A stretch of 62,231 nt of DNA, the filler included, from Sphacelaria rigidula (taxonomy: Eukaryota), in assembly GCA_964200075.2 (NCBI GenBank). It is 7 parts of 7 records of this genome, joined end to end, with 100 filler letters (N's around TTAATTAATTAA, not from the genome) between each part and the next. Parts side by side here need not be neighbours in the genome. Positions count along the whole stretch, not along the records: positions 53,429 to 62,231 come from CAXNAA020010055.1; 6 more parts are not named here. The stretch is one strand, 5' to 3'. This document shows positions 3,713 through 61,176 of the stretch, one piece after another; position 1 is the stretch's first letter; each line of letters begins with the position of its first letter. Under the pieces are notes generated by a model, which was not told the origin of the DNA, ran no database searches, and saw only the letters and a program-made list of their open reading frames with translations. A program made the translations under genes and the position numbers.

Positions 3713-4588
3713 GTAGACGCGATACGAGCCGTGAAGTCCAAGAGATAAGTGGCTGAGACAAACATCAGGTTACCCAACATATGAACGCACTTGTGGTTGA
3801 AGTGGAAAACAGAGCAATACATTACTTTTGTTTCCGACGGTACCCGATAAGGCAAAAGGGATAAAGACACCCATGCATGGGAGCACATGTGCGCGTGTAT
3901 TGAGATTCGGCAGCTATGTGTACGTATCTGCGCGTGTGCACATACCAGGTTCGGTATCAATATTGATATCATTTGCTTTCAACGGTCGCGTGTACCGCTG
4001 TTGAAAACAAAAGTCATCCCTCTTCCATTTATATTCCTAGCAGTGAAATAGAACAGGACCAAACCAGGCCAGTAGTTCGGAACCTGGTCAGGCATCTTTG
4101 AGCTCAGCACGATTTCCCCTTACTTGTAGGTATATATGATATTCTCCAACAATGTCAGGTATTCTGCCAGTGTAGAGCAGCTTCATAGAAGGTTCGGCAA
4201 GTGTTCTACAGGCCCTGAATGCTACGATACTACATGTACCATGCCCGGTGAATCACGACTCGGAAATATGCGTTCAAGGGTTTCTGCTTTCATTCGCCTC
4301 TTGTACTCTATCGATGCTATACGTGCTTTAGATCCATATTGCCGTATTGATGAGGAAGTCCTACTCGCTTGGATTACCTCGGGCACTAAGGTTGTAGTCA
4401 CGGAGATGCGTTCATGTAAAGTGTCATTTCAGTAAGGACGGGCAGCTCCTGTCCTTCCCGTTCATGTGCGACGATAGTGTTTTTTTTCAACGCTGTTTCT
4501 CGTGAGCTGACATCAGAACCCTCCGGTGTTATGCCAATTGTGCTACCGCGAGCAGTTACTCCTCAACAAAAACCGCGTGACAAAGCTG

Positions 4589-6505
4589 ATGGCCAGCGTG
4601 GCGAGGAGAGAGTGCATACACGAGGGCTGCCCGAAGCGACCATGGTATGGTGTACCGGGCTACAAGGCGGAGTTCTGCTCTCAGCATGCCAGGCCGGGGA
4701 TGGTAGATGTTGTGTCAAAAAAATGCGGCGACGAGTTCTGCTCGAAGAAGCCGTCGTATGGTGTGTCAGGAAGCAAGAAGGCGGAGTTCTGCTCTCAGCA
4801 TGCCAGGGCGGGGATGGTGGATGTTGTGTCAAAGAAATGCGGCGACGAGGGCTGCTCGAAAATTCCGTCGTTTGGTGTGGCGGGAAGCAAGAAGGCGGAG
4901 TTCTGCTCTCAGCATGCCATGGCGGGAATGGTGAATGTGGTCCACCAGACGTGCGGTGATGATCGCTGCTCCAAGACGCCGTTATATGGTGTGGCAGGAG
5001 GCAAGAAGGCGGCGTTTTGCTCCAAGCATGCCAGGCCGGGAATGGTTGATGTGGTGGGGGAGAAATGCGGCAAGGAGGGCTGCTCAAAGAAGCCGTCGTA
5101 TGGTGTGGCAGGAAGCAAGAAGGCGGAGTTCTGCTCCAAGCATGCCAGGGCGGGAATGGTTGATGTGGCGACAAAGAAATGCGGGAACGAGGGCTGCTCC
5201 AAGCAGCCGTCGTTTGGTGTGGCAGGAAGCAAGAAGGCGGAGTTTTGCTTGAAGCATCCCACGGCGAAAATGGTGAACGTGTTGGGCAAAAAGTGCGGCG
5301 ACGAGGGCTGCTCCACGACGCCGTCGTATGGTGTAGCGGGGAGCAAGAAGGCGGAGTTTTGCTTGAAGCATGCCAGGGCGAGAATGGTAAATGTGTTGGG
5401 CAAAAAGTGCGGCGACGAGGGCTGCTCCACGACGCCGTCGTATGGTGTAGCGGGAAGCAAGAAGGCGGACTTTTGCTTAAGGCATGCCAGGGCGGGAATG
5501 GTGAATGTGGTGCACAAGAAGTGTGGCTACCAGGGCTGCCCTACGCGCCCATCGTATGGTGTGGCGGGAAGCAAGAAGGCAGACTTCTGCTCTCAGCATG
5601 CCGGGGCGGGAATGTTCAACGTGGTGAACAAGAAATGCGGCGATGAGGGCTGCTCGAAAACGCCATCTAATTATGTGGCGGGAAGCAAGCAGGTGAAGGT
5701 TTGCGCGCAGCATGCCAGGGCTGGAATGGTGGATGTGGTGACAAAGAAATGCGACGATGAGGGCTGCTCGAAGAAGCCGTCGTATGATTTGGCGGGAAGC
5801 AAGAAGGCGGAGTTTTTCTCTCAGCATGCCAGGGCGGGAATGGTTCATGTGGCGAGCTACAAACCTAGCAGAGAGGGATGCTTGAACTTGGATATTCTGA
5901 AGGACGACAACCGTGATGAGGCAAAATTGTGCTGGCAGCATCCTACTGCTGCGCATGATTTAGCTACAGTGTACGACACGGGAGAGCTCAGCACTGGGAA
6001 GGCCACCTCCACTCGTTGCATTACAGAGGGTGGTGGAGGAAGCGTTGCTGGCGTGCGAGGAACAAAACGCAAGCGCGCACCATGCTTGAGTTTTGGCACA
6101 AGCGACGTTATGGATGCTCGACGTTGTGTGTACCCTGTTGCCAGGCGGATTGGTGTAACACCACCGTTGTTTTCGGGCCAGCTACCCTCATGGGGCGATC
6201 ATCAGGTGTCTTCCGTGCCAAGGGTAGGAGCAGGAGTGAAGGTAGAGGTGGCAGCTCCTTTTTCTATACACAATTGCGCTGGAATGGGAGAGTTTTGCAA
6301 GCATACTGCCCCTTTGAGGGATTGGAGCAGTGCAGGTAGTAAAAGTAGCCCCAGCAGCAGCAGTTGTGGTGTGAATGCGGGACGGCTTTGTGGTTCCCAG
6401 GCAGTTGTATCTGGGTCTCCTGGCGGGTTTGTTGGTGTGGAACCAGTAGAGACGTTGGAGGGTTCAAGCGTGAAGTTGGAGCTAGGAGCGGCGTCCGACA
6501 GATGA
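4589..6505 (+). CDS. EsV-1-7 cysteine-rich repeat protein (IMM/EsV-1-7 family), 11 tandem C-X4-C-X16-C-X2-H-X12 repeats, intronless
   Basis: Long open ORF with first ATG at 4589 (the ORF-track start at 4526 is GTG). One 37-aa and ten 38-aa repeats such as CGDEGCSKKPSYGVAGSKKAEFCSQHARAGMVDVVSKK at 4613-5863. The C-terminal tail has a KRKR NLS-like motif. An upstream exon cannot be excluded. Confidence 0.92.
   Translation: MASVARRECIHEGCPKRPWYGVPGYKAEFCSQHARPGMVDVVSKKCGDEFCSKKPSYGVSGSKKAEFCSQHARAGMVDVVSKKCGDEGCSKIPSFGVAGSKKAEFCSQHAMAGMVNVVHQTCGDDRCSKTPLYGVAGGKKAAFCSKHARPGMVDVVGEKCGKEGCSKKPSYGVAGSKKAEFCSKHARAGMVDVATKKCGNEGCSKQPSFGVAGSKKAEFCLKHPTAKMVNVLGKKCGDEGCSTTPSYGVAGSKKAEFCLKHARARMVNVLGKKCGDEGCSTTPSYGVAGSKKADFCLRHARAGMVNVVHKKCGYQGCPTRPSYGVAGSKKADFCSQHAGAGMFNVVNKKCGDEGCSKTPSNYVAGSKQVKVCAQHARAGMVDVVTKKCDDEGCSKKPSYDLAGSKKAEFFSQHARAGMVHVASYKPSREGCLNLDILKDDNRDEAKLCWQHPTAAHDLATVYDTGELSTGKATSTRCITEGGGGSVAGVRGTKRKRAPCLSFGTSDVMDARRCVYPVARRIGVTPPLFSGQLPSWGDHQVSSVPRVGAGVKVEVAAPFSIHNCAGMGEFCKHTAPLRDWSSAGSKSSPSSSSCGVNAGRLCGSQAVVSGSPGGFVGVEPVETLEGSSVKLELGAASDR
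4613..5863 (+). repeat. 114-bp coding tandem repeat x11 (EsV-1-7 units)
   Basis: The first Cys codon of each unit recurs every 114 nt from 4724; the first unit is 111 nt. Confidence 0.95.
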
Positions 6506-42249: not shown

Positions 42250-43284
42250 CTTCGTTTATGCGTTGATCAAGTCACTACGCCGGAGTGTCTCTTGTATTCA
42301 GAGTCGCCGATGTTCTGTTCTCCAGGACAGGTGCCTTCATTGAGAACCGCATCATTTTAGATTAAGCAGTATTCCCAGCTGAAGTCTATAATTCTTGTCC
42401 CAAGGCAGGGACCCCCCCGCTTTACCGCGCGGTAAAAGTATGCTGGGACCCTTCCTCCTCCTCCTCCTCCTCCGGCAGGTGGGAACGTAGGTAGTCATGG
42501 TTCGATTCCGCCGCGCTCTGATGGTAGGAAAAGTTAGGCCTCTGCCCTCTTTTCTTTTTTTTCCCCCCGAAAGACAAGATGGGGATCATGTTGAAGCGGA
42601 AACCCCGCCGAGGCGTCGCAATTACTTGATTTCCGGGTTCAAGACCGAAACACAAGAGCGCATATTTTGTGCGAAGTATACCAAAGCATAAAGGGCAAAG
42701 GTCTAGGAAAAGTACAACCGACACGAAACGTACAACTGATTCCATTGTCTGGGGAAAATACGGGTTCGGTTTCGGGGAAATGCACTTGCAATTTTTCCGT
42801 ACCCTGAAAAATAGATTACACACTGTCAAGAAGGGTACTGCGTACAGTGTCGACTATTGCGTCTATCTGCGATAGACAATAGATCCAGTTCATCCTGTAT
42901 AGATTATGTTGTAAACATGAGTGCTTTTCGACAACGTAATCTGTTGTCCAGGATGTGTGTGTGTGTGTGTTTTTTTTTCACAAAAATCAGGGAAATGCAT
43001 ATTCCGATCCGTTTTTTTTTTTTCCCGTCGTTGAAATCTTATCTTGGCAGCGCGAGAAGGTGAGTAGCAAAGAGAAAGGTTTTATTTGACAAGGGTGGAC
43101 GCCATCCTGTGCCGGAGTGCAATTCCAATGCGCATTGCCAAATTGGAAGGCGTGGACTGTACCGGGAATGGAGACATGAATTGATTCCTTGATACTACGG
43201 AGTCTTGTTCCAAACGGTCGGCAGGCATCATCGAATTAGAAGATGCACTCCCCCCCCTCCTCCCCCTCCTCCCCCTTCGACTAC

Positions 43285-43523: not shown

Positions 43524-43708
43524 TCCACCCCACGACACCCCCCCGGCCCCGCACGGGCGCGGGCAGAGGGACGGGGGGGCGNNNNNNNNNNGGGTTTGGT
43601 TTATTAGGAAAAGGAAACGTGATTTTTGGGCAAAGGGGAAACGAAGAAGGCAAACAACAAATGGGTCCCCCCCCCCCCCCCCCCCTCCCCCCCCTCTCCT
43701 CCAACCAG

Positions 43709-52944: not shown

Positions 52945-53328
52945 GTGTCGCGTACCGTATCGTTTTTTGTTGTAGGTACAATCTTGACCAAAGCATAGTG
53001 TCGAATACCAGCGTCTCATGGGCAAATTTCTGGACGTGCTGCTACTTGCTACGTACGGTAAGTTCATGTGGCTGTCGGTCGCTGAAAGTGTTTCAGGATG
53101 GCTCTGTTTGCGCACTTCCCGCAAACGCCGCCACTCTCGCCCCCCCCCAATTGAGCCTGGCCCGGCGAAAACCCGGCATGCTCCGTCCCGGCTTTGTAGG
53201 GGCGGACCCCCGATGGGGTTGGCGTCGGTTGGTGATGACGCTATAAAACACGCCAATCGCTACAGAAGCTAGGCGACCAGGTTACTTGTTTTGCGCGCTT
53301 GCGTTTTTTTGACGGTAACCATGATGGT

Positions 53329-57029: not shown

Positions 57030-58066
57030 CGCGACAGTGAAGACGCTATACTACTACTGTACTGTATTGGCAAAGCACAGCTACCTATACTACTGTGCTC
57101 GCGAGTACAGCCCGCCGTGCTTGTACCCTACATGTAAAAGACAAAATAACGATCCACCTTCACCTTTTGTCATGACCGGTCCCGCGTCATATTTTTTAAT
57201 TCGAGAGCTCACGTTTTAAAATCTGCGGCACGTTACGGATGTTCGCAAACAAAGTGAAGCCTTCACGTAGTCAGTAGTGATACCCTCTGCATCTGCACCC
57301 ACCACTGCCATGTACGTGCATCTGCATGTGGCCTCGAACCCTACAGTAAAGACGGTGTAGCACTGTACTGTAATGGCAAAACACAGCGACCTACTGTGCT
57401 CGCGAGTACAGCCCATGGTTGTAACCTGGCGCTGCTGTATTGTTTCTTCTTCCGGAGTACAGCCCGTGCTTGTAATAATGTGGCACTACTGTATTGTCTG
57501 CGCTTGCTTTCATCCGAAAACCAACTCGAAAACTGCCTGTGAGCACGCCACGATTGGCAAAAAAAACGCGGTGGAAGGGATAAGTGTGTACAAACAGAAT
57601 CGGTTAGCACATCTTCCACGTTCTTACCGTTTCCCGTGAACAGTGCAGATATACTGCACCGCCAGGGTACTGCTTGCACCCGTCAGCATGACGGCTGCTG
57701 CCGTTGGCATCGGCGCAAGCGCTCGCGGCCACGGCGAGATTAATTTTGCAACAAGAGAAGCTGATGCATACTCGTACTAGTGTTGTATACAGTCCGTCTT
57801 CAGGTTTTAAAACTAGAAAACACTGCAGAACTGCCGTGTTGTCTGGTATTCAGTGTAGTAGTCTGCACTTCATATACCACTGCAGAGTTGTCTTGTGCTG
57901 AGTGTACCACACTATACTCCAGTTAATCGGGTTATGTTTTGAGCGGTTCTTGAAAAGTTCTGTTGGTTTTTTGAAAAGTTCTCGCAAAGGTCTGCTCGTT
58001 TTTCTGTCACAGAAATCCAATACCGGATCTGGAATAGCCTGAGACAACAACCAATTTGAAAATTGA
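57030..58066 (-). mobile_element. Family Y element, second copy
   Basis: TTTTCTGTCACAGAAATCCAAT.CCG.ATCTGGAATAGC.TGAGACAACAACCA is shared with 38365-38420; internal repeat TACTGTGCTCGCGAGTACAGCCC occurs twice. Left boundary uncertain. Confidence 0.6.
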
Positions 58067-58463
58067 ATTTGGGGATTGCTTTTTTATTGAGGATGAGAAC
58101 CCGGAGAATTAAAATCTTCGTACCCACACCGAATCTTCGAAATATAGTTCCCCTCCTTCACCTACTGGTAGCTATTGACAACTACTACACGTCATACAAT
58201 TTTTCATCCTGATAACCGACATGTTGGGGTCTTCGGTGAAGAAATATTTGGGGGAATGTGGATGACCCGATCAGATCGCCCAAATTCCCCATAGGACTCC
58301 AACATTTCGGTTATTGAAGTTCAAATTTCTAAGGCGTGTAGTTGTTGTCAATAGCTCCCAGCAAGTGAAGAAATGGTACCACATTTCAAGATTTGGTGTG
58401 GATACGAAGATATTAATTATCTGGGTTTCTCATCCTCAATAAAAAACCCATTCTCCCCAATTT
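58066..58463. repeat. ~400-bp imperfect palindrome (fold-back MITE)
   Basis: TTTTTTATTGAGGATGAGAA/TTCTCATCCTCAATAAAAAA, AGCTATTGACAAC.ACTACACG/CGTGTAGTTGTTGTCAATAGCT and ATAACCGA.ATGTTGG/CCAACATTTCGGTTAT. An end of the same family is at 53429-53465. Confidence 0.88.
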
Positions 58464-58654
58464 GTAAAATCCCGTGCTGGCTTCGTCTCTCTAAATCAAA
58501 ACATGCATCATGCATCCTCCGACGAACCCAACAAGAGTATCCCGCAAAAGTCGTAGTCCTAGCCACAGTTGTTAGCCCTGGTAGTGGCAGCTTGTTCGTG
58601 GACGAAACCTAAACCTATACGATACCTACATAGTTTATCCCATGACTATCATCG

Positions 58655-59155
58655 ATGCTCTTGTGGCTTGTGACGATTTATAGGCAACCGATTAGACTAC
58701 CGTACAGTCTGCGCTGACAGTACGGTAGTCTAATCGGTTGCCTATAAATCGTCACTAAAGTTAGCCGCTGGTTCGATTCCCGTCGGACGCACTTTCGTTG
58801 AAGAAAAAGAGGAAACCCTACCTCCGGTAAAAAAAAAGGGTGATGGGAGAGGGTTTAATCCCCGAGTTGACTGCTAGGGTCCCCAGTGCACACACTCTGA
58901 AAATGAGTGGGGGAGACAAGTAACTCCGAATGGATACGCATGGCAACATTAGACCGATACCCTGAGCGCGAACAGTTGAACAGCGCTAGCAAGGGGAGTC
59001 ACCCTCCTCGGAGTGAAAGTGAAGGGGATCAAACCCGCACGACTAACTTTTGTGACGATTTATCGGCAACCGATTAGACTACCGTACAGTCAGCGCTGAC
59101 TGTACAGTAGTCTAATCGGTTACCTATAAATCGTCACAGGCTTTACAAGTTATTA
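58655..59155. mobile_element. Element with long inverted ends, each made of an 86-bp palindrome plus an inward-facing tRNA-like A/B box
   Basis: Palindromes at 58670-58755 and 59052-59137. TAGTCTAATCGG (58726) and GGTTCGATTCCC (58770), mirrored on the minus strand at the right end. Confidence 0.8.
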
Positions 59156-59698
59156 TCGCAGGAGCAACGGCAAATGACAGAACGACAGCTGACGCCACCA
59201 ACAATGAGTGAATATAAACACAAGAGGGGAGGCAAGAGGGAAGAATAAAAACGCTTGCACGCATGCTGTTTCTCCCCCCCTTTTTGTTATGCGATTCTAT
59301 TCAAGAGGGGGGGATAGCAGATGCGTGTTCGTGTTCGTGTGTGTGTTGCACGAACACTGACGGTATAGAAAGCCTGTCAAGACCGAGTGAACGTGTTCTT
59401 ATTAAAAACATACAACTCATCAACTCCTTGAACACAACCAATACCGTCCGTTCTTCTTTAACGTGGACTCCACTCCCGTTAGCCTCACCCGCGTACCCAT
59501 CAACTGCCGAAAACAAACGACTTATCCACAGAAACACCGAATACCCGCAATCGACGCTTCAACTAGATCATATATTTGATAGAACTACGAAAACAAAATG
59601 TTTGTGATCGTGATACACACACAAAAAAACATATCACAACATCGATGATAACTACTAACAAACACACGTTTTTTGTTGCCAGAGAAAACAGGAATGAT

Positions 59699-60091
59699 CG
59701 GAGCTCGGAAATGGTACCGATATAACTGGCCACTATCATTATAATGGTAATAATGGTAATGGTTATATGAAAAAATTGGATAATGGTTTGAAACCAATAT
59801 TCACCGTTACCAGCTAAATAAGTCGTTACCGGCTACGTATGCTTCATGCAGCCCCTGAAAATTATTGGCCCAAACATGACGTACTTTTTGGCTCTAATGA
59901 AGCCAAATCGTGTAACGACGTGCTCGCGGCACGGCGCCTCAAGCGGGGCCCCCTCTTCCGGGGGGTACTTTTTGGCTCGCGGCTGCGTCGCTCGATAACC
60001 AAACCATTATGTACCATTTGATTGGTCAATGGTTGCACTACGCGTAACCATTCAACTGGTTCATGGTTACACAAACCATTCCCGAGCTTAA
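59699..60091. mobile_element. hAT-like MITE with 8-bp TSD GGAATGAT
   Basis: AGCTCGGAAATGGT...ACCATTCCCGAGCT, many subterminal AATGGT/ACCATT motifs, and GGAATGAT on both flanks. Confidence 0.8.
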
Positions 60092-61176
60092 GGAATGATG
60101 ACGAGTTTTTCACTGTTTTTTTATAATCAAACTTATTGAGAGAAGAAGAAAAAAAACGATGAACAAAACAAAATGCACACTGTACACTGGGCTGGAACAC
60201 GACAGATCATTACTATTCGACCCTAGCAAAAGCAAGAAAAAAAAAACGCGAACTTCAATATTCTACTTGTCATTGTGTTTCTTTTTCTACAAATGCCTTC
60301 ACGATCAAGGTACCGGGATATACGTAGCCGTCTCATCTCCTATCCCATAACTTCTCGTCTCTCCCTGACACAAATACACACAGCACGAGGCAACACACCA
60401 CAACGTCCCCCCCTATCATACACAAAACGCTTGCTTGCTTCTTTTTCTTTTCTCCCCTTGCTGCATCGTTGCGCAAAATAGTTTTTTAAACGACCAAGGA
60501 CGGGAAGGCCGAACCGAACACACAAAGCCACTCTCAACAGCCGAGCTTTTTCGCTGTCGCAGAGAGACGAACTCGTAAACAAAGCAAGGCAAAGCCGTGA
60601 CAGGAGCGTAAAATCGAGCGAGGGTTGGTTACAAGAGCGACACGGACACAAGGCTAGGTCGACCTCACGCGAGTACGAACACCCCGCATATCATCCGGTT
60701 CCTAACAGTCTCACCGATAATATTGGGGCAAGATGCGCCCTTTACCCAGGTGGGGTCTTTGGCAACGGTACTCGAAGGGGAAGATGGACATTTTTCTTTT
60801 TCATAATCAGGCTGCTTCCCGTTCCACGTATTATTCGTCATGGTAATAATAACGATATACTTAGAGAAATAACCAAGCTCATCTCAATCATGTTTTCCCT
60901 ACTTCCTCTCGTCTGATCGATTATGGTTGATTTCTGCTTCATTGCATGCATTCCTTCCTCCCATTTCCTTCTCCGTCATCTTTCCATTTCTCCCTCGCCT
61001 GTTATTATTATTTTCCCACTTTCGTCTATATATATTCTTCTTTTCTCTTGAAAAGAAGAAGGACAAGCAAAAAGTTATGGAAGCCCCTTTTTTTTTCTAG
61101 GGGGGGTGGGATGTTTCGCGAAAAAATGACGAGCAAGAGTCCGCACAATCCACAAAACGGCGACGGCGACGGCGAC

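Follow-up and report, generated by a model that had tools for sequence, protein, structure and literature searches.

A repeated 470-bp element with palindromic ends in Sphacelaria rigidula is probably a non-autonomous DNA transposon

Results

Organization of the locus

The window that we analysed is a 62,231-nt stretch of DNA from Sphacelaria rigidula (assembly GCA_964200075.2). At 58669-59138 it contains a 470-bp element without coding capacity, in which the longest stop-free stretch is 58 aa. Each end of the element is a loop-less palindrome, and each palindrome forms the outer part of a terminal inverted repeat of ~116 nt; the two inverted repeats enclose a 236-nt non-inverted interior. The features of the locus, from left to right, are as follows.

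58665..58668, no strand: GGCT, the left of two candidate target-site duplication copies (GGCTT with an element start at 58670), abutting the symmetric end
58669..58756, no strand: P1, left terminal palindrome, TGTGACG...CGTCACT (last letter A in the family majority), the outer 88 nt of the left inverted repeat
58726..58737, plus strand: A-box-like word TAGTCTAATCGG, an inward-facing motif
58688-58699 (minus), 59070-59081 (minus) and 59108-59119 (plus): further copies of the motif TAGTCTAATCGG
58757..58784, plus strand: inward continuation of the left terminal inverted repeat, with the canonical B-box word GGTTCGATTCC at 58770-58780
58785..59020, no strand: non-inverted, non-coding interior of 236 nt, with an A9 run at 58829-58837
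59021..59050, minus strand: inward continuation of the right terminal inverted repeat, with the degenerate B-like word GGTTTGATCCC running from 59035 down to 59025
59051..59138, no strand: P2, right terminal palindrome, TGTGACG...CGTCACA, pairing 41/44
59139..59142, no strand: GGCT again, the right of the two candidate target-site duplication copies, abutting the symmetric end

Palindromes and inverted ends

The initial annotation described two loop-less palindromes with 41/43 and 40/43 paired arm positions, and our measurements agree with it. A repeat finder returned the left palindrome at 58670-58755 (43-nt arms, 95% complementary, 0 nt between the arms) and the right one at 59051-59138 (44-nt arms, 93% complementary, again loop-less). 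When both are taken as 88-mers (58669-58756 and 59051-59138), 41 of the 44 pairs form in each. P1 and P2 are also 94% identical to each other in direct register, at a distance of 382 nt. A 23-nt word from the arms occurs four times in the window and in none of 100 shuffles. With arms of 25 nt or more and up to three mismatches allowed, the 62-kb window contains no loop-less palindrome besides P1 and P2. Folded as single-stranded DNA, P1 reaches -45.2 kcal/mol (z = -15.9) and P2 -37.5 kcal/mol (z = -13.9), values matched by 0 of 200 shuffles. Rfam gave only sub-threshold miRNA-hairpin matches on the palindromes (mir-199, 25 bits where the gathering score is 60), which are generic hairpin hits.

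The inverted symmetry does not stop at the palindromes. It reaches ~30 nt further inward, giving 102 nt at 92% identity without gaps and 121 nt at 88.4% in a gapped alignment, so that the inner flanks are inverted as well, as had been claimed. The whole 488-nt stretch, folded as RNA, forms a single long stem between its ends (-249 kcal/mol, z = -15.5). Elsewhere in the 62-kb window neither the element nor its core nor its palindromes recur, and no arrays of the 382-nt unit were seen there.

Ends of the element and the flanking repeat

With the family-majority A at 58756 (described below), both palindromes read TGTGACG...CGTCACA and the ends of the element are exactly symmetric. GGCT directly abuts both ends, and GGCTT does so with a 1-nt shift, in this one copy; the context reads TGTGGCT|TTACAAG. 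At 5000 random loci, the chance rate of a flanking repeat within +/-1 nt was 3.2% for 4 nt or more and 0.7% for 5 nt or more. We regard GGCT(T) as a candidate target-site duplication, of which this is a single case. In a systematic test the direct repeats at the flanks did not exceed 5 nt. Thus, duplications of 8 bp or of 9-11 bp are absent. Reading the flanks by eye, we saw none of TA, TTAA or TNA/ANT.

Several other kinds of unit were considered and rejected. Helitron ends are 5' TC and 3' CTRR, and both are absent here on reading the sequence. For an introner-like GT...AG unit of the duplicated length, the sequence holds no in-register pair. A Tc1-like 'TA CAGTC...GACTG TA' at the palindrome centre was dropped, as it points inward. 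No transposase or integrase domain was found in the 15 largest of the 32 ORFs of at least 150 aa in the window.

The element belongs to an abundant family

Part of the stretch is present in 18 public runs from nine studies, all of them partial holders, with a best word share of 0.38. Contigs of four runs (X1, X2, X6 and X14) were placed on positions 57600-60200 at a likeness of at least 85%. The flanks at 58557-58643 and 59166-59687 have a depth of ~60 in X1 and 34 in X2. Bins inside the element have summed depths of 2.2e4-4.8e5 in X1 and 7e3-3.5e5 in X2, and the interior (58785-59020) has 1.2e5-3.1e5 in X1 against ~60 in the flanks, a contrast between element and flank of three to four orders of magnitude in summed contig depth, a quantity that is not copy number. 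The element belongs to a very abundant multi-copy family with dispersed copies.

The contigs that contain the unique flanks end at 58695 on the left (X1 and X2) and begin at 59109 (X1) or 59108 (X2) on the right, with no mismatches in X1 and three to five in X2. Because these contigs break about k-1 nt inside the palindromes, the borders of the repeat lie at ~58666-58669 and 59137-59138. The repeat borders coincide with the outer ends of the palindromes. Contigs from other copies cross the middle of the element in all four runs (X1, 58801-59030; X2, 58786-58987; X14, 58784-58935; X6, 58767-58897), and it is therefore one unit and not two juxtaposed insertions.

Run X6 does not contain the locus, since its depth on the unique flanks is zero. 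Its contigs nevertheless span the junction between P1 and the core (58682-58807 and 58712-58834) and that between the core and P2 (58972-59125), and sets of 88 and 117 of its contigs have loose ends that correspond to a related palindrome terminus (GTGACGTTTTATAA... and ...TATAAAACGTCACA). The palindrome-core architecture is conserved in this second organism. The initial annotation had offered two readings of the locus. Its single element with long inverted ends fits the borders at the palindrome ends, the contigs across the middle, the X6 junctions and GGCT(T); its alternative, a tail-to-tail pair of SINEs, is at odds with the contigs through the middle and with outer ends that have no tails.

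Depth is uneven within the element. In X1 it is ~40-fold lower in the palindromes (2,233 at 58710 and 12,284 at 59064) than at the core ends (506,900 at 58765 and 537,336 at 59037). No bin of the element is deeper in X6 than the palindrome bin, at 53,185. One variant contig has the outer 17 nt of a palindrome arm replaced. Most family members in the organism of X1 may be without the palindromes or carry diverged ones; alternatively, the palindromes may have been clipped when the k=31 de Bruijn contigs were built.

Exact patterns from the element gave no matches in viral contigs (palindrome arm and B-box region) or in metagenome contigs (palindrome arm and core word). A single genome contig (L001) matched the B-box region; the match falls in bacterial coding sequence that contains no tRNA, and we rejected it as due to chance. 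The public runs that contain part of the stretch include none recorded as RNA. Run X14, which is RNA only by guess, contains contigs of other family copies (depth 5-8) and gives no exact cover of this locus, so it is uninformative on expression.

Decay from a symmetric ancestor

We compared the element with the family majority in the four runs, where 40 of the 261 majority differences were listed. The family majority departs from this copy at 15 or more positions inside the element. At 58756 the T of this copy is an A in 190,136 of 192,030 in X1, and further differences include C>T at 58765 and C>A at 59064. When the listed majority letters were put in by script, three of the six palindrome mismatches were restored, which brought P1 to 43/44 and P2 to 42/44, and the end-to-end identity rose from 114/136 to 118/139. 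This copy is old and has decayed slightly from an ancestor of greater symmetry.

A-box and B-box words

The initial annotation proposed that each end carries an inward-facing, tRNA-type Pol III promoter. The words on which this was based are present. TAGTCTAATCGG at 58726 and GGTTCGATTCC at 58770 lie exactly 44 nt apart, as had been reported, and the window has one such strict pair of A and B boxes, where the expectation for a random window of 62 kb is 0.0033 (from 300 Markov windows, in which one pair was found). The left end thus has a canonical pair. The right end does not: its B box, GGTTTGATCCC, has a T at a conserved C (one mismatch), with an A-to-B spacing of 46 nt. The A-box word at 58726 faces inward as described, but the same word occurs four times within the palindromes and two of these copies face outward. 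The part of the inverted ends that holds the B boxes is also their least symmetric part.

Among the 40 of 261 differences listed from the four runs, none falls in the left B-box region (58766-58796) and none corrects the right B box.

The identification of a tRNA-type promoter found no support from tRNA models or folding. At default settings ARAGORN found 0 tRNA genes in the whole window, and the Rfam tRNA model matched nothing up to E = 10, also when the search was confined to 511 nt; no Rfam family reached its threshold anywhere in the window. ARAGORN relaxed to an 80% threshold drew a tRNA-Val(CAC)-like cloverleaf at 58719-58790. We rejected this call as noise, since relaxed calls arose in 106 of 400 shuffles and at 43 places in the window. 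Nor do the tRNA-like stretches fold more stably than shuffled sequence, with z = +1.9 at the left end and z = +0.1 at the right. On the plus strand the only T run of four or more is at the edge of P2, 59048-59051, and a transcript started from the left would be ~340 nt long; the minus strand has a T9 at 58837-58829. Neither end carries an A-rich or simple-repeat tail, both being palindromes, and the sole A9 run is internal, with contigs of other copies running across it.

The window contains further exact matches to the B-box consensus GGTTCGANNCC, at 42499 (plus) and 57340 (minus), where ~0.4 are expected per random window. Neither has an A-box-like word 30-60 nt upstream.

Surroundings of the element

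An unrelated foldback-type repeat lies directly to the left of the element (58075-58451). Its nested arms, at 58075-58231 and 58295-58451, match at 88-89% in the outer 28-40 nt and at 75% inside. Its summed depth in X1 is ~1e6 and many joints of the 'opposite strands' kind fall there; Rfam gave only a sub-threshold hairpin match, to MIR7533 (66 bits where the gathering score is 230). With a different foldback repeat next door, foldback elements appear to be common in this genome. The stretches at 57600-58470 and 59688-60122 are highly repeated, with summed depths of 4e3-1e6 in X1. Because both outer neighbouring stretches are so repeated, the element sits in a repeat-rich, apparently non-coding region. 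Exact contigs of X14 cover 59444-60200 at a depth of 30-67, with zero depth at 59166-59426, and if the guess that this run is RNA is right, this suggests that a transcribed region begins ~300 nt to the right of the element. Further left, the stretches 57056-57113 and 57362-57414 carry direct repeats, 24-32 nt in length and 91-100% identical, at a spacing of 301-306 nt, and additional short ones lie at 57404-57497; a local duplication or one more repeat family may account for them.

At the other end of the window, 4526-6505 on the plus strand is a 659-aa ORF in which 11 cysteine-rich EsV-1-7 motifs were found (PF19114 in Pfam, E = 1e-163), a zinc-finger-like family of brown algae and phaeoviruses. 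An IMG/VR contig (L002) encodes a relative of this protein with 40% identity and contains nothing resembling the element region. Proliferation of the EsV-1-7 domain in brown algae is described in PMC12477816, which makes a brown-algal host for the window reasonable. Between 8807 and 53428, paired blocks of 44 N recur every ~8.9 kb, with one block of 10 N at 43582-43591 (538 N in total). These blocks look like masked stretches and not assembly gaps.

Discussion

We propose that 58669-59138 is a non-autonomous DNA transposon with terminal inverted repeats, of the MITE or foldback type, with integrase-like TG...CA ends and a 4-5-bp target-site duplication. We put the probability of this reading at roughly 55%. 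The anatomy of the element, its repetitiveness, the position of its borders, the repeat that flanks it and its decay from a symmetric ancestor are direct observations. Our confidence is only moderate because the depth of the palindromes is so far below that of the core, and the strict pair of A and B boxes, which is rarer than chance, is left unexplained by this reading. Unusual as it looks, the element is probably an ordinary miniature transposon. According to PMC12477816, non-autonomous DNA transposons abound in Ectocarpus and many families there lack a classification (51 DNA/Unknown and 94 Unknown families).

The first part of our model addresses how the element may move. A DDE transposase or integrase encoded elsewhere would bind the TG...CA ends and would excise or copy the element, perhaps by cut and paste. 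Insertion at a staggered cut of 4 bp, or possibly 5 bp, would then duplicate GGCT(T), and the empty site before insertion would read ...TGTGGCTTTACAAG... On this model the palindromes belong to the mobile unit itself and were not inserted separately.

The second part of our model involves what the palindromes may do. They could extrude as cruciforms in DNA. A read-through transcript would form perfect hairpins of 43 bp, or a stem of ~116 bp between the two ends, and such RNA stems could in principle feed small-RNA silencing.

It is possible, though we think it rather unlikely, that the locus is a composite, in which a core of ~300 bp (~58756-59051, with ends AAAAGTTAGTCG...) is the real and abundant MITE and the palindrome is a separate mobile element or a fold-back extension of a sub-family. 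This explanation stays alive because of the gap in depth between palindrome and core, 2e3-1.2e4 inside the palindromes against 5.1e5-5.4e5 at the core ends in X1. The core ends are also the deepest bins of the element, as expected if several MITE families share them. However, GGCT(T) lies outside the palindromes and not at the core ends, and both types of junction recur in another organism (X6). In addition, the flank contigs break inside the palindromes, which implies that the palindrome ends are repeated beside different flanks, and the palindromes may be under-represented in k=31 contigs in the first place.

We consider it improbable that each end carries a working, inward-facing tRNA-type (type 2) Pol III promoter, whether as a source of convergent dsRNA transcripts or as a pair of tRNA-derived SINEs. 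The spacing and rarity of the left pair of boxes argue for this view, as do a left B box that is free of listed majority differences and T runs that are available on both strands. Against it stand the default ARAGORN and Rfam results, the noise in the relaxed call, the lack of a fold signal, the defective right B box and the two outward-facing A-box words. The ends have no A-rich outer tails and other copies are contiguous across the middle, which is not what a pair of SINEs would give. If the difference in depth is real, most copies of the core would moreover be without the arm that holds the A box. Finally, one such pair of boxes is expected by chance many times over among the ~250,000 windows scanned. 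The words are most likely a captured tRNA-like relic, or a coincidence inside ends that bind transposase. We treat them as a lead and not as a demonstrated promoter, and we think a convergent pair of working promoters unlikely.

We assign a similarly low probability to the view that the 88-nt palindromes are direct repeats of a 382-nt unit. The locus would then represent 1.23 units of a tandem or rolling-circle array, or a small circle that a tyrosine recombinase or hairpin resolvase integrated at a pre-existing palindrome. The 88-nt copies are 94% identical at a distance of 382 nt, and a head-to-tail junction of units with inverted ends would be predicted to form exactly such a palindrome. 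Tyrosine-recombinase elements (Ngaro, PAT-like) are abundant in Ectocarpus according to PMC12477816. Conservative site-specific recombination, however, is not expected to give the GGCT(T) duplication; both flanks are single-copy, the window holds no array, and the borders are whole palindromes on both sides.

More elaborate functions for the ends seem to us very improbable. One could imagine an element in which 88-bp palindromes that form cruciforms are combined with inward Pol III promoters starting at the palindrome centre, giving convergent transcripts of ~270-340 nt as self-silencing or regulatory dsRNA, or an element whose ends are made or resolved through DNA hairpins. Highly unlikely, last, is a TRIM-like miniature LTR retroelement with the palindromes as 88-nt terminal direct repeats and the tRNA-like word tied to priming: the TG...CA ends, the direct repeats, the 4-5-bp flanking repeat and a tRNA-related word (TGG...) 13 nt inside the left repeat would fit it, but no purine tract abuts the palindromes (CGACTAACTTTT adjoins P2 and its mirror adjoins P1), the bases beside them (AAAAGTTAG and CTAACTTTT) include no abutting primer-binding site, the word is in the T-arm sense of a tRNA, not in the complementary sense, and stands apart from the repeat, and an LTR element has no use for the mirrored inner flanks.

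If the locus is a non-autonomous DNA transposon as we propose, it would add an abundant, unclassified family to the poorly charted DNA transposons of brown algae, and its TGTGA...TCACA ends with a 4-5-bp duplication would point to an integrase-type enzyme unreported in this lineage. The perfectly palindromic ends are unusual and would deserve attention as formers of cruciforms or hairpins near genes and as sources of small RNAs. The host group is described as lacking cytosine methylation and classical repressive histone marks in PMC12477816. The presence of Pol III promoters, if true, would matter more because no SINE with such a promoter is known in Ectocarpus, and the evidence for it here is thin. 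The literature that we searched contains no description of the element or its 12-nt words and no comparable palindromic end structure; the family may already be catalogued in a repeat library.

How does the element compare with known systems? It shares with tRNA-derived SINEs the left A-box and B-box words at tRNA spacing and a high copy number. Unlike them, it has no recognizable tRNA head and no tail at its end, its right B box is defective, and it is organized in inverted fashion where SINEs have a head and a tail. No Pol III-promoter SINE is reported from Ectocarpus in the passage of PMC12477816 consulted.

Among DNA transposons, Sola1, which is present in Ectocarpus, resembles the element in its 4-bp duplication, but GGCT does not fit the Sola1 target AWWT/AWDT given in PMC3845634. 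The signature of Ginger elements consists of TGTNR termini, inverted ends of 40-270 bp and a duplication of 4 bp (5 bp in TDD-4/5), and it is common to Gypsy-type integrases, according to PMC2836005. The TGTGA...TCACA ends of our element, its inverted ends of ~116 nt and the length of its candidate 4-bp duplication are alike. Its GGCT, known from one copy, is not the CCGG/CCGT of Ginger1, nor does it lie inside RTATAY as in Ginger2 (targets as stated in PMC2836005). Ginger is absent from the superfamilies of Ectocarpus listed in the passages of PMC12477816 consulted.

Tc1/Mariner and Harbinger MITEs are reported in Ectocarpus in that same text, and the flanks of our element fit neither TA nor TNA/ANT. 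The element also differs from MITEs and foldback DNA transposons in general in that the outer 88 nt of each end form a loop-less palindrome, so that its ends are direct and inverted repeats at once. Like them, it is short, non-coding and present in high copy, it has inverted ends with a strong potential to form hairpins, and it is flanked, in the one copy seen here, by a short direct repeat.
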